Below are positions 12,300-61,849 of a DNA stretch of 64,000 bases, in pieces (positions within the stretch are counted from its first letter, which is position 1; every line of letters begins with the position of its first letter). Origin of the DNA: Eledone cirrhosa (lineage: Eukaryota). The stretch covers positions 35,588,001 to 35,652,000 of the forward strand of contig OZ024747.1 of assembly GCA_964016885.1 (NCBI GenBank), given 5' to 3'. The notes under the pieces are model-generated. The model did no database searches. It was not told the origin of the DNA and saw only the letters and a list, made by a program, of their open reading frames with translations. The position numbers and the translations under genes are program-made.

Positions 12300-12651
12300 C
12301 AAAAGTTAAACAAGGTTCATTGATTAATCAATGAATATAGTTTACAATAGAGTAGGAGCACTCAACAGTATTTTCTGGAGTTATTAATATTAATTGAAAA
12401 TATTAACAAATATAGACATTCATGTAATCAAATATATTTTATTATATATATTTCCGAGATAGTGTGCTGTTTCGTCAGTACGTCCTCAAGACTGGAATTG
12501 AACCATCAGCACAGTTGAGGTATGTCAGACATCAATTTATTTTATGTGATGAGGACATACTGAGGAAACAGCACAGCACCTCTGAAATATATATAATAAA
12601 ATATATTTGATTACATGAATGTCTATATTAATTCATATTTTGAATTAATAT
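12300..12651. mobile_element. Small fold-back PLE-derived element with HHR-like cores in both arms
   Basis: Inverted arms ~12387-12489 and 12550-12651 carry CTGA(C/G)GA..GAAATATATATA. The left arm extends through an ACTCC..GAGTGCT tail. Flanked by (TA)n. Confidence 0.7.
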
Positions 12652-13077
12652 ATATATATATATATATATATATATATGTATATATATCCCATAAGAAACG
12701 GAGAATCAGTGGTGCGACGAATAAGATTTATTAGACATATTACAATCGTTGCTCTGGCGACCAGCCCAAGGCACGATCGATGCAATGATCAAACCTGAAT
12801 CTGAAATCGGAAGATCCTCAGATTTGTCTTGATTCTACGAAGCAGAATGTCCAGTTACACCCGCGGCCTTCACTCTTATGTGATATTATACTCTGCTCTG
12901 TAAGAACATCGAGTGATCAAACGGCATACCGCTTACGGACTCTTTAAGCATCTCTCATCAATTATATATATATATATATATGTAGAGGTTTTATTTAATG
13001 TGTTGGGATACAACACGAATGGTTGCATTTTTTAAGGGTATGTCAATATTTATTTATAAAACTAACCTATATTATAA

Positions 13078-13137
13078 TTTATCTGATGAAAGCGCACCAT
13101 AGTTTACCTTGGTGTCCCTTGAAACATGTATAATGAA
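13078..13137 (+). ncRNA. Hammerhead motif, family A
   Basis: TTTAT-CTGATGA-aagcgcacca..tggtgtccctt-GAA-acatgtat-A^ATGAA. Confidence 0.65.
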
Positions 13138-14390
13138 ATAAATATGGTTTTATAAATATAGTTTCCATGTGTTAATATATATATATCTAAACAATTCTCC
13201 CTAAGACGAACCCACAACATACATACCTACATCAGCATACATCCTACATACATTTCTATCCACATATAAACACAATGACATACGTAAACACACATGTTCT
13301 ATGGTGCAACACAAATGTACACAAATTTGCATACCTTTTGATGTCTATAGATATAAACGCGCCGACACACACACATACATATACGCACACATGCATTGCA
13401 CACTGATGGGCACATAGATATTTGTACACAAGTATTCCAATACGGCAGGGCCTAATGTATTCCCCTTGCAGTACGTACAATCTGGACGCTCACACATACC
13501 TTGGTGTTATGACAACACTATACATCATTTCACCCCTTTTATTATTAATGTTTTCGATGTTCTTTTGAGAGAACCGTTTTTGCAAATTACTGAAAATATC
13601 GAATAATGTACACCCTTGTTACCAGTATCACAAAAATACTGGTCCATCCACACACACACCCACATATACACACATACATACACACGCGTACACTAACATA
13701 CAAACATACGTTTACACACACACACACGCACACATTTCTCCGTATAAGACAAGAGCTGAAAAATATCTTCCAACATGTTAAGATATCCCCCACACACGTA
13801 CAGACACATTCCTACTGACCGAATCCCTCTACCACGAACCACTCTGATACACACACACACACACACACACACACACACACACACACACACACACACAAAC
13901 ACACACACACACACACACACAAACACACACACACACACACACACACACACACACACACTCACTCACACACACATACACATATTTGTCTTAATAAACACCT
14001 GAACTGTTGACCTTTCAACATGACTGCAATTCACACACATCCCTTACTGGCCATTATCACAACAATGAACCTCTTTACTACACACACACACACACACACA
14101 CACACACACACACATATATAATTGTCTTAAAAGACTTATTTTCCAGTGACTTCTCAATCAGGCGAAAAAGGACACTCTTCGACAAACCTACATTTGGGGC
14201 AAAATCAATTTTTAACATTCACGTGACTCTACCGACCAATCCAAAATTGTTTTGACAACAAGAATTTTTGTGACATGAATTGGCGCGAAATTTATAGTAC
14301 TCATTTACATGACATTCAACAACCAACCAAATCTTAATACCTCGGGAGCCACTTTTTTCACATAAAAGAGGTAGAATTTCCAAAACTCAT

Positions 14391-14582
14391 CAGACTAGAG
14401 CGAACATCACGGGCGCTCTATCTTAAATTTATTTTTGAAAAGCATTAGAAGTGCGCGTTCGGTAAAAACTTAAAACTAAAACTGAATACTAACCAATACT
14501 TATTACTAATTTTTACTTATTCCTAATTAAACTATTTTTCACTGGGAAAAATTTGTCACCATTTTCTTTTCCTTTTACTAAT
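14391..14582 (+). repeat. Unclassified dispersed repeat (second copy at 38253-38445)
   Basis: About 190 bp of clear similarity between the two loci, both adjacent to (TA)n. Confidence 0.75.
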
Positions 14583-57952: not shown

Positions 57953-59173
57953 AGATTTACCTAGTATTTCTAATAGCCCGTAGAAATTGACTAAACATAA
58001 AGCTAACCATACTCAATTAGGTACAAAATCAAACTTAGAAGAAAAAATGTACATAAAGATACCAAAATTATGTTTCTACCCCATGAGATTTCATTCGCTT
58101 TTTGGAAATATCCGACCATAGAAAAATGAACGAGTTTCGAAATAATCAGGAAACAAAATCAATAGGACAAAGATTTTTCTTAAATGATCCCCGCCAGAAA
58201 CGACTTCAAAATGGCTAAGAATTGTCACATAGCCAGTGGTAGATTTTATTCAGAGGTCCATCTTAAACTTATAGCCACGTTTAATTGATTTTTTATGTGG
58301 TTAATTATGGTGATTGGGAGGAGAAATACTGTATATATTATATTAAATGATTCTATCGATTAATTTCTTTACTTTATATACTCACACACATATATATATA
58401 TATATATATATATATATATATATATATATATATATATATATATATATATATAATATATATTATATATGCATATATATATATATTTATATATGCATATATA
58501 TATATATATATATATATGCATATATATATATACATGCATATATATATATATGCATATATAAATATATATATATATATATATATATATATATATATATATA
58601 TATAGAAGAAGTTTATGAAACGGAAATGCGGGTATAAAGAATTTATTAGGTAACAATTGTTTCTATAGTGTATGGGTTACCTATACCTCGCTATTTGAAT
58701 AATATAAACATATTATCATAAACCGAAGGTACACTGCAAGCAAACACACCATGTCGTCAGATCTTTGTATTGGAATGATATGAAAATATTTTATACACTA
58801 GATAAAAGAGAAAGAAGGAGGTAGGAAGAGAAGGGGAAGAGGGGAGTGAGTAAGGGGGAGGGAGTCCTAGGATTTAAGACTGTCAGACTAGTATAGATTG
58901 TAAGGAGAGAATGTTTTGGCAGCAGTTAGCTTAATGAGGCGGGTTAGGCTTGAGGGGTAAGTAAATTCATCTAGTGGTGTTGTTTGGACAAAATTTAGTT
59001 AAAGGGGTCAAAGTGTTACAGAGTTACAGACAAGTTATTGGGGCTATTATGGTAGCAGGTTATTTCTAAAGGGGTCCAGAAAACAGTGTTTAGTACTATT
59101 ATTATAGAAAGCCATATCTTGTGTATAAACATATAAAACAGAAATTTGCAAACGGTGGTGTAAAAAGGTAACA

Positions 59174-60360
59174 TTATATGCATTTAAAAAAAGAAAAAGT
59201 CGTTTTCAAACGATGGTTACAGTTAAGTGAACGTTCAATTTTGCTGTTCAAAAGTTTGTTTACCGACGTTAAAATGCAGTATATCTCCAAATTGCATAAT
59301 TTACAGAATCGATGATTTTGCGTATATGCAGGCGCAGCTGCAATAATTTGCCAATCAAGGGAAAATGCTTGATTGTTCCTCCGGAGCTGCCAGGCTTTTT
59401 CGGCGATGGTTGTTACGGAGCGCATTTTCTCGTGCCTGATCGAAGATGGATGTTGGTATAGGCGAGCTTTGAAAGAAGTTGCGGTACATTCAACGTAATA
59501 CCATTTGTTGGTTCCGGAATTTATTGTACATCGGTAGACAATATTGCGTGCTAGGCACTGGTTATTCAGTGGGCACGTACCTGGTTTGGTGCAGTTACAA
59601 TTATTTTTATGTTTTGCAGTAGTATCCTGGATAGTTTGGTGGGGTTGTAGTTGCGTGTTAGTTGCTATGCTGCTATGCTGGTGCGCTGAGTCATTAGGGA
59701 TGTATTTATTTAGTATTGCTGAGTTGAGTTTTTTAATTAGTTGGTCTATGTTAGGTGCAGTGGAGTAGGAGAGTCTAATGGTGCGCGAGTTAAAGATTTT
59801 ATAGTATTTATGTGAAGTTGTAAAGTGTTTATTGATTAGTGTATAGAATTGTGAGATAATCTTAGTGCTAATAGAAATATTGTATACGGGGTTATACCAT
59901 ATGTACTCTCTACGTCTGACTCTATTTGCTGGTTTGCACCTATTAGTATGCCTATTGATGTGTGTGTGTGGTGCAATACTAGTTCGACTTAGATGTGTTT
60001 TATTCATAGTACTTATGTGGTTATCGTCTAGATATTCTATTTTCTCGCAGTAACCACCTTTTCTAAGTGCGTCATTATAATATTCAGCATGCTCGATGAA
60101 CGTCAGCAAATTAGACGACAGTCGGAAGATTTTTATGGATATATTTTTAGGAATAGATTTAATAATGGAATGGGGATGGTTCGATTTTACATTAACGTAC
60201 TTGAGATTTTCATTAAGTTTGTGAAATGGCTCTATATTACCGTTATTAAGTTTGAAGATGACATCCAAGAAGTTGACCACCTTAAGATTGTGTTCGAAGA
60301 TAATATTAAGTCCTAGTTCTAAGAAAAGTTTCCTAATGTTTTTACGTCGTATTTCTAGGC
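59174..60360 (-). CDS. PLE RT C-terminus/thumb, linker and GIY-YIG endonuclease (5'-truncated)
   Basis: VNFLDV..KYVNVKSNHP..SIPKNIS..LSSN; IWYNP; CNCTKPGTC; IVY..YYVECTATSFKARLYQH; CKLCNLE; LLNSKIE..CNHR. Confidence 0.9.
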
Positions 60361-60933
60361 ATACAACGCACTAACACGCAACGACAACCCCACCAAACTA
60401 TCCAGGATACTACTGCAAAACATAAAAATAATTGTAACTGCACCAAACCAGGTACGTGCCCACTGAATAACCAGTGCCTAACACGCAATATTGTCTACCG
60501 ATGTACAATAAATTCCGGAACCAACAAATGGTATTACGTCGGATGTACCGCAACTTCTTTCAAAGCTCGCCTATACCAACATCGATCTTCGATCAGGCAC
60601 GAGAAAATGCGCTCCGTAACAACCCTCGCCGATAAAGCCTGGCAGCTCTGGAGGAAAAATCAAGCATTCTCCCTTGATTGGCAAATTATTGCAGCTGCGC
60701 CTGCATATAAGCAAAATCATCGATTCTGTAAATTATGCAATTTGGAGATATACTGCATTTTAACGTCGGTAAACAAACTTTTGAACAGCAAAATTGAACG
60801 TTCACTTAACTGTAACCATCGTTTGAAAACACTTTTTCTTTTTTTAAATGCATATAATGTTACCTTTTTACACCACCGTTTGCAAATTTCTGTTTTATAT
60901 GTTTATACACAAGATATGGCTTTCTATAATAAT

Positions 60934-61022
60934 TGTTTCTACTTTTGGCACAAGGCCATCAATTACCCAGTACATTACTGGTACTTTATTTTATCGACCC
61001 CGTAAGGATGAAAGGCAAAGTT
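60934..61022 (-). mobile_element. 5'-truncated family-1 SINE with 13-bp target site duplication
   Basis: TTTCTATAATAAT at 60921-60933 and 61023-61035. The SINE is absent from the opposite PLE arm. Confidence 0.85.
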
Positions 61023-61849
61023 TTTCTATAATAATAGTACTAAACACTGTTTCTGGACCCCTTTAGAAATAACCTGCTACTATAATAGCCCCAATAACCT
61101 CTGTACCAGTTTGACCTCTTTAACTAAATTTTGTCCAAACAACACCACTAGAAGAATTTACTTCCCCGCCAACCCTAACACGCCTCATTAAGCAAACTGC
61201 TGCCAAAACATTCTCTCCTTACAATCTCTACTTGTCTAAAAGTCTTAAATCCTAGGAATCCCTCCCCCTTACTCACTTCCCTCTTCCCCTTCTCTTCCTA
61301 CCTCCTTCTTTCTCTTTTATCTAGTGTATAACATATTTTCATATCATTCCAATACAAAGGTCTGAGGACATGGTGTGTTTGCTTGCAGTGTACCTTCGGG
61401 TTATGATAATATTTTTATATTATTCAAATAGCGAGGTATAGGTAACCCATACACTATAGAAACAAATGTTACCTAATAAATTCTTTATACCCGCATTTCC
61501 GTTTCATAAACTTCTTCTCCATAATTTCTCCGGATTTGATAACACACTTTATTATACCCTGAGCAATCTCCGACGTCGGTTGACTCCATCCAATGCAACT
61601 ACTTAGTAACATTGGAATACAAATTTACTAATTTTCTCTCTCTCTCTCTCTCTCTCTCTCTCTCTCTCTCTCTCTCTCTCTCTCTTTATATATATATATA
61701 TATATATATATATATATATATATATATATATATATATATATATATATATATATATATATGCATACACACATATATATATATATATATATATATATATATA
61801 TGCATACACACATATATATATATATATATATATATGGTGTAAATGGAAT

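Follow-up and report, generated by a model that had tools for sequence, protein, structure and literature searches.

Results

Inverted insertions in the window and the hairpin beside their ends

The DNA analyzed here, 64,000 nt of Eledone cirrhosa contig OZ024747.1 (positions 35,588,001 to 35,652,000 of the forward strand; hereafter "the window"), carries a series of inverted-repeat, or fold-back, insertions which, judged by their protein and end motifs, are Hydra-clade Penelope-like retroelements (PLEs) residing in (TA)n. Aligned to itself, the window yielded all seven inverted pairs of an initial annotation plus a palindrome at 17141. When read outward, the long arm runs on for 80–165 nt, as a tail, past the point where each short arm enters (TA)n. 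The annotation had placed this point shortly before an (A/T)CTCC motif in the tail, which held in 7/7 cases (12651, 19930, 32101, ~43680, 39968, 58604, and 36902), at a distance of about 3–9 nt, with TA microhomology blurring arm ends by 2–4 nt.

WCTCC and a second annotated tail motif, GAGT(G/A)CT, turned out to be opposite strands of a single bulged hairpin, RCUC-[variable stem-loop]-UH-GAGY, with a loop length of about 4–70 nt. We term the copy inside the tail hairpin 1, and a copy between the tail end and the ATG, in the 5' untranslated region (5' UTR), hairpin 2 (Table 1). The linear motif does mark ends but is only a subset of the signal, present in 16/111 pairs of the blind surveys described below versus 41/111 for the hairpin. 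At 12.4k, 17.8k, and 32.5k, GAGTGCT makes up the hairpin's 3' foot. At 43.2k, 38.6k, and 61.5k the window copy is mutated, whereas TTGAGT/TTGAGC is the foot in most of the remaining 38.7k- and 58.6k-family copies; the GAGTACT at 38591 is not a hairpin foot.

Table 1. Insertions and hairpins in the window (strand: +, plus; -, minus)
Feature	Position	Strand	Details
Fold-back insertion	12298..12651	-	arms 12387-12651; short end 12651 into (TA)n; tail 12298-12386
Hairpin 1	12357..12381	-	ACTC-CAG..CTG-TT-GAGT-GCT
Hydra-clade insertion	17752..19936	-	long arm 17833-18011 + tail; short arm 19758-19936; GIY-YIG C-terminal remnant near 19.5-19.75k
Hairpin 1	17811..17833	-	ACTC-CAA..TTG-TC-GAGT-GCT
Family C fold-back	32099..32642	+	short end 32099-32101; centre near 32322; hammerhead core at about 32442-32478; tail to 32642
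Hairpin 1	32547..32589	+	ACTC-CGGAG..CTTCG-TC-GAGT-GCT
Hydra-clade insertion	33272..36902	-	GIY-YIG ORF remnant 35251-36357; tail 33272-33435; inverted short arm 36521-36902
Hairpin 1 (annotated as a motif variant)	33394..33430	-	GCTC-TGTAA..TTACA-TT-GAGC; compensatory form
Inverted insertion	38556..39974	-	long arm 38707-38871 + tail; short arm 39810-39968
Hairpin 1, long loop	38632..38703	-	foot mutated here to GATT; GAGT in most other copies
Older family C fold-back	43138..43683	-	short end about 43680
Hairpin 1	43207..43249	-	ACTC-CGGAG..CTCCG-TC-CAGT; mutated foot
Hydra-clade insertion	58604..61633	mixed	minus: short arm + RT-thumb/GIY-YIG ORF 59174-60370; plus: inverted long arm + tail 61519-61633
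Hairpin 1	61527..61567	+	TCTC-CG..; inner pairs mutated in this copy; most others have CG-TT-GAGC
Extra tail with hairpin 1, not annotated initially	47765..47794	+	adjoins GIY-YIG remnant 46684-47550 (minus)
Extra tail with hairpin 1, not annotated initially	5310..5333	-	
Extra tail with hairpin 1	12895..12917	+	
Hairpin 1 of an eighth inverted pair	57536..57577	-	pair: 57.4-57.65k with 58.3-58.4k
17141 fold-back, negative control, other PLE clade	17098..17725		ORF begins inside pLTR, DKSG; fixed ends, no hairpin
ORF, open reading frame; RT, reverse transcriptase; pLTR, pseudo-long terminal repeat.

Mapping of long- and short-arm ends in genomic copies (30 loci per family, retrieved with arm plus tail as query) showed the ends to be fixed as in the window. 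Relative to the motif, the 21 short ends of family C lie at -5 (12), -9 (8), and -12 (1), those of the 17.8k family at -5 in 13/13 cases, and the 11 of the 58.6k family at -4 to -12; in the 12.4k family 18/19 non-long matches end at -1 to -6, in the 38.7k family 15/15 ends fall at 0 to -12, and the 33.4k family gave 19 ends at -4 to -9, in addition to 22 matches of low complexity and 4 further partial ones. An AT-rich short-end query for the 17.8k family gave no match. An abundant mini family (pieces at 31917-32029 and 47927-47980) combines arms of about 55 nt with an 80-nt tail and hairpin 1; in the fetched DNA, -6 accounts for 41 of its ends and the long site (+72/+73) for 68. A further 9 of its matches end at -20, and no autonomous partner was found for it.

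Blind surveys and covariation

Queries made of arm plus tail favor tailed and similar copies, and blind surveys were therefore run as well. The first covered 600 kb in 12 blocks and yielded 133 inverted pairs, among them 66 unique pairs having (TA)n or (CT)n at just one of their ends, of which 64 were kept after dropping 2 of low complexity. The hairpin descriptor, partly tuned on this set, consists of a 4-bp stem (CTC/GAG or TTC/GAA core), a 2-nt bulge starting with T, and two inner pairs, and was scored when the hairpin started within a 20-nt window from -4 to +16 of the short end. It was present at the short-arm end in 26/64 pairs, compared with a mean of 0.59 (max 3) in shuffled tails, 192/20000 random positions, and 2, 0, and 1 at later offsets. 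With the descriptor fixed, a hold-out of 400 kb of new sequence gave 15/45 pairs at distances of 3–10 nt (shuffles, 0.53). Both blind samples thus stand far above shuffles (about 0.6), ruling out chance as the source of the hairpin at ends. The distance from end to hairpin is 3–11 nt (n=49, search window 0–14), whereas that from end to hammerhead ribozyme spreads over 37–84 nt (n=19), for which reason the hammerhead was rejected as a ruler for the ends. We likewise rejected the motif as coding sequence, hairpin 2 sitting before the ATG, and as a 3' splice site, the AG not being conserved.

Pairing was assessed with CTC and TNGAG as anchors and no pairing demanded, which gave 49/111 pairs in 17 families. 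Inner positions one to three are paired in 15, 16, and 14 of the 17 families, with several pair types, and own-genome families show 10 G-U and 0 A-C combinations across four inner positions.

A second hairpin at the long end

In read-through copies, hairpin 2 lies just past the long end and ahead of the ATG, at -42, -45, -51, -45, -46, and -41 in 6/9 distinct own-genome junctions/families. Where a family offers both kinds of copy, as four do, long ends fall mostly 3–10 nt before it. Hairpins 1 and 2 are spaced by 91, 167, 113, 169, 89, and 99 nt, and this spacing agrees with the tail length in the five families with both measured. Contigs from two sequencing runs on the junction have a drop in depth near the long end, of a kind that cannot show starts. 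The idea of hairpin 1 as a road-block for long cDNA was discarded, as only about 2/68 tail-complete copies stop at its foot.

Relatives in metagenomes and published consensus sequences

From 120 listed homologues, 30 were aligned and then used to fetch 77 metagenome loci with 45 distinct regions upstream of the ORF. The strict descriptor was found in 34/45 regions (shuffle mean 2.7, antisense 2), the anchor in 42/45, with two or more copies in 32/45, adding up to 80 anchors versus 6.1 shuffled. The first inner pair is formed in 85/90 distinct instances (51 C-G, 32 U-A), and two-sided changes stood at 55 versus 20 (0/500 shuffles; 62 of 64 instances with 8–14 nt inserts). Seven candidate ends were seen, one of them spurious; the other six are (TA)n ends 0–13 nt before a hairpin. 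When a covariance model was built from metagenome copies alone, it returned 8 sites in the window with E no higher than 5, and 4 of the 7 initially annotated sites ranked in the top 5. By eye, the closing pair above the bulge is more often U-A in hairpin 1 and C-G in hairpin 2 in L318-L394. A single-protein metagenome scan found nothing, and Rfam covariance models, applied to the window and 6 of the 77 metagenome loci, returned repeat-driven miRNA-type matches only, below the gathering score.

Among the six published Hydra consensus sequences (PMC8557442, consensus file, available portion), inspection by eye revealed the motif in 3/6 and variants in 2: Hydra-1_Ajap has two copies before the ATG, Hydra-2_Ajap and Hydra-2_Amil have one copy each at the 3' end, Hydra-1_Crog and Hydra-1_Obim show variants only, and in the sixth the motif was not seen in the ends shown.

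Clade identity

Features described for Hydra-clade endonuclease-positive (EN+) PLEs (Craig et al. 2021, PMC8557442, in the part available) include RW(K/R), a change of DKG to DKT, a CxCX5C linker, plus a GIY-YIG domain at the C-terminus, along with flanking CxxC and CxH motifs, (TA)n targets, a hammerhead in the pLTR, an inverted truncated copy, and a tail. Tandem copies in our families yield full ORFs of 736 aa, intact at L092:4271-6478, and of 776 aa, with RW(K/R), CxCX5C, and DKT in place of DKG; RWR/RWK stands at residue 37 in L092, L093, and L095, and CxCX5C and CxxC occur in L092, L093, and the window ORFs 35251 and 46684, while CxH is present in L092 and lost in L093. Insertion sites in (TA)n were seen in family loci. 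The Pfam GIY-YIG match was weak (E 0.006, below the cut-off), Pfam gave no family for two full ORFs, and a PDB sequence search returned nothing useful. The clade call is based on motifs, not on an RT tree; the 12.4k family had no tested ORF, and the 38.7k family was linked only via a similar junction in L220. The annotated elements are, as initially described, unrelated at the DNA level, yet members of one clade where tested.

Hammerheads pointing outward, another annotated trait, have clear cores at 17.1k, 17.8k, 32.3k, and 43.4k and in the 12.4k family, but not in the 38.7k, 33.4k, and 58.6k families, where they are long-spaced or degenerate: the 58.6k family has a core with 97-nt spacing (25/42 sites), and a search of the 38.7k and 33.4k families found just a GAAA/palindromic half. 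No hammerhead family was among the Rfam matches of the window.

The palindrome at 17141 indeed lacks the motif and, by its own motifs, appears to belong to another PLE clade: its ORF starts inside the arm, it carries LPPKFA and DKSG motifs (the RT/EN part was not retrieved), and it has fixed ends and no hairpin. Marks of Penelope/Poseidon/Neptune PLEs compared with it are the ORF start in the pLTR and DKG-type plus GxKF-type motifs. Among the families tested, the hairpin signal is specific to the Hydra clade. Model matches in the 17141-family loci L194 and L199 belong to neighboring elements beyond (TA)n tracts. Both loci contain a long insert rich in asparagine, as well as two long ends separated by about 13 nt.

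Discussion

At the level of sequence, clade membership, the two hairpin copies, the end positions, and the covariation can be regarded as demonstrated, and the paired hairpin with its distance rule as strongly supported; its function is deduced from the sequence alone. Each insertion end lies a few bases 5' of one hairpin copy, and we consider it probable that the hairpin serves as an RNA docking site for an internal RT start. The conserved cis signal proposed in the initial annotation is supported, though it is structured rather than linear, exists in two copies, and appears to set both ends.

The ends themselves bear on how they are made. Runs of (CT)n, 3–39 units long, occupy 21/30 family C long ends, 4/10 and 3/25 ends of the 58.6k family, and 7/17 short ends of the 33.4k family, but 0/157 ends in seven other end classes. 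In the (CT)n-bearing classes, the read-through template has UCU beside the end, which fits primer realignment at the RT start. Furthermore, the short arms of L402, L396, L418, and L016 contain sequence missing from the long arm and are therefore not simple copies of a long cDNA; L403 is a short + short pair, and two short ends have no partner within 1.5 kb. The UCU-bound (CT)n and the short-arm-only sequence lead us to favor two internal RT starts over the nicking or second-strand priming considered initially.

The reading nearest to the second-strand idea would have the long end as sole RT start, the cDNA folding back and second-strand synthesis halting at hairpin 1 to give the short arm. Centers at palindromes, arms that usually have variants in common, and the self-priming proposed for PLE palindromes (PMC3846280, in the part available) are what one would expect from it, but the four short arms with sequence of their own, the two short arms in L403, and (CT)n at short ends too make it very improbable; second-strand priming as annotated is contradicted by L402, L396, and L418.

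GIY-YIG homing endonucleases cut at a distance, and the near-invariant GCTC/GAGC arms could be DNA contacts. The element's GIY-YIG endonuclease might read the motif in extruded or single-stranded DNA of the element, nick at a fixed distance, and resolve a longer cDNA intermediate at either copy. Such a scheme has to accommodate hairpin loops of about 4–70 nt, the sense-strand G-U bias of this genome, and template-dependent (CT)n, which cut-and-join would not produce. We therefore judge it unlikely, and nicking less likely than an RT start, even if recognition by the D. virilis Penelope endonuclease depends on the tail (earlier work as reported in the available part of PMC11167929) and the tail has been ascribed to EN-mediated resolution (PMC8557442, in part).

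It is also unlikely that the hairpins function mainly in ribonucleoprotein assembly or translation, the ends lying beside them just via unpaired U/A-rich bases that pair with a (TA)n primer. While the conserved distance of about 40–50 nt from hairpin 2 to the ATG and the TA/AT microhomology at ends speak for it, U/A-rich sequence is found all along the pLTR, and yet the ends cluster within about 12 nt of each hairpin (for example, the mini family has 41 of them at -6 and, at its long site, 68).

For an RNA docking site and two internal starts, a tentative sequence of events would be as follows. The endonuclease would cut (TA)n, the protein, perhaps a dimer, would bind hairpins 1 and 2, and each cut end would prime at U/A bases 3–11 nt upstream of its hairpin, with the RT sometimes stuttering on UCU and thereby adding (CT)n. 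Both cDNAs would extend toward the RNA 5' end and be joined head to head at self-complementary spots, leaving an inverted repeat whose arms differ by the hairpin spacing, the excess on the longer arm being the tail. Because hairpin 2 is absent from inserted 3' ends, the template has to span the junction from pLTR to 5' UTR, which could be provided by tandem read-through, a circle, or strand transfer; a circular template has been proposed (PMC4209133, in the part available).

As to the joining step, of 30 family C long arms, 20 have their inner end between -229 and -207, where an 8-bp palindrome lies; in the 17.8k family 11/30 inner ends fall at -240 to -183, and in the 58.6k family none are clustered. 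The family C cluster (L001-L030; window 32322) lies at a palindrome about 225 nt upstream of hairpin 1, and in three family C copies (TA)n is joined directly at this inner site. The cluster may mark the RNA 5' end, a possible transcription start, or a joining hotspot.

Several observations weigh against the docking-site reading. Recurrent variants are mostly common to both arms (12:1, 4:1, 4:1, and 6:3; 3:8 in one family), which also fits fold-back copying and suggests a single source RNA or locus. Of the blind pairs, 70/111 fail the strict descriptor; these include decayed copies, other clades, and non-PLE repeats, part of them having been classified. Hairpin 2 is degenerate in L256 and missing in L163, and L275 (survey block L273) has a fixed long site with hairpin 1 only and no canonical hairpin 2. 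One slid control, second inner base versus anchored bulge U, also scored 15/17, because the pairing falls on the anchored U, and the outer four pairs, near-invariant and selected for, carry little information on pairing. As lone structures the hairpins are weak (z +0.5 to -2.8 in 8 folds), although most fold as drawn. In the metagenome set, the second inner pair is formed in just 38/71 anchors, G-U versus A-C stands at just 7 to 3, and the metagenome-trained model missed 3/7 window sites, those with mutated or long hairpins.

Telomerase uses an internal RNA template set by nearby structure and adds repeats by realignment, and L1 twin priming employs two primers to create an inversion; here, both primers would copy overlapping sequence from two motif-defined sites. 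The comparison with telomerase concerns mechanism. On balance, chances seem about even that a clade-wide GCUC/GAGC hairpin pair provides the template-positioning elements for a twin-primed, telomerase-like start, in which each of two RT sites would start at a fixed distance 5' of its own hairpin, with stutter, and so generates tail, inverted arms, and new (CT)n microsatellite.

To our knowledge, just one PLE has been reconstituted to date. For Poseidon PAc of Anolis in vitro, two internal RT starts bound the tail and both target strands are cut and extended (Frangieh et al. 2024, PMC11167929, in the part available), a likeness that extends to an AT-rich target and a predicted dimer. PAc starts lie inside the ORF in an AC-rich stem-loop, however, instead of in the 5' UTR. 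The part of that paper available describes no recurring motif tied to a distance rule, and GCUC..GAGC is absent from the RNA stretch given in the text of its Fig. S1. The eel LINE UnaL2 likewise has a small bulged RNA stem needed for retrotransposition (PMC1636434, in part), but this stem-loop resides in the conserved 3' tail and is copied, whereas the Hydra hairpins lie 3' of the start, come in two copies, and have hairpin 2 left out of the 3' end. For the Hydra clade itself, tails of 30–40 nt are given in PMC8557442, versus 66–170 nt here, and the portion available holds no account of a hairpin pair. The clade is thus known, as are two internal starts for another clade, while the hairpin pair and the distance rule for both ends appear to be undescribed; our literature search, with subscription papers and Repbase notes outside its scope, found no description of them.

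How PLE tails and inverted ends form has so far been an open question. An RNA element that comes in two copies and predicts both ends throughout a clade points to exact mutations to try and can serve as a marker when Hydra-clade boundaries and non-autonomous partners are annotated. It also gives a view on how an RT related to telomerase selects an internal template and appends repeats. If the twin-primed reading is true, the signal, lying outside the copied part, could be placed to start copying of any upstream RNA.

Other observations in the window

A 64-nt tail-end fragment + (TA)n (38161-38253 versus 38526-38618) is a 100% identical inverted copy of the adjoining element's tail end, despite that element's own arms being just 88% alike. 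Very long interrupted (TA)n tracts (36899-37566 and 37778-38090) lie beside a short-arm end; the elements may extend their own (TA)n targets. Two further types of inverted element are without the hairpin: an inverted/tandem family with several fixed ends (7800-12300 and 61840-62420), and an element with a tail of about 40 nt (19955-20657). Decayed remnants comprise a LINE-type RT (Pfam RVT_1; 26281-27549, minus strand), a further RT-like piece (5937-7485, plus strand), and Tc5/Tigger-type transposase pieces (HTH_Tnp_Tc5; 41269-42540, plus strand). A dispersed repeat of about 190 nt recurs at 3640-3833, 21853-21948, 50542-50934, 57151-57349, 60921-61022, and 63697-63826, one piece of which interrupts the long arm of the 58.6-61.6k element.

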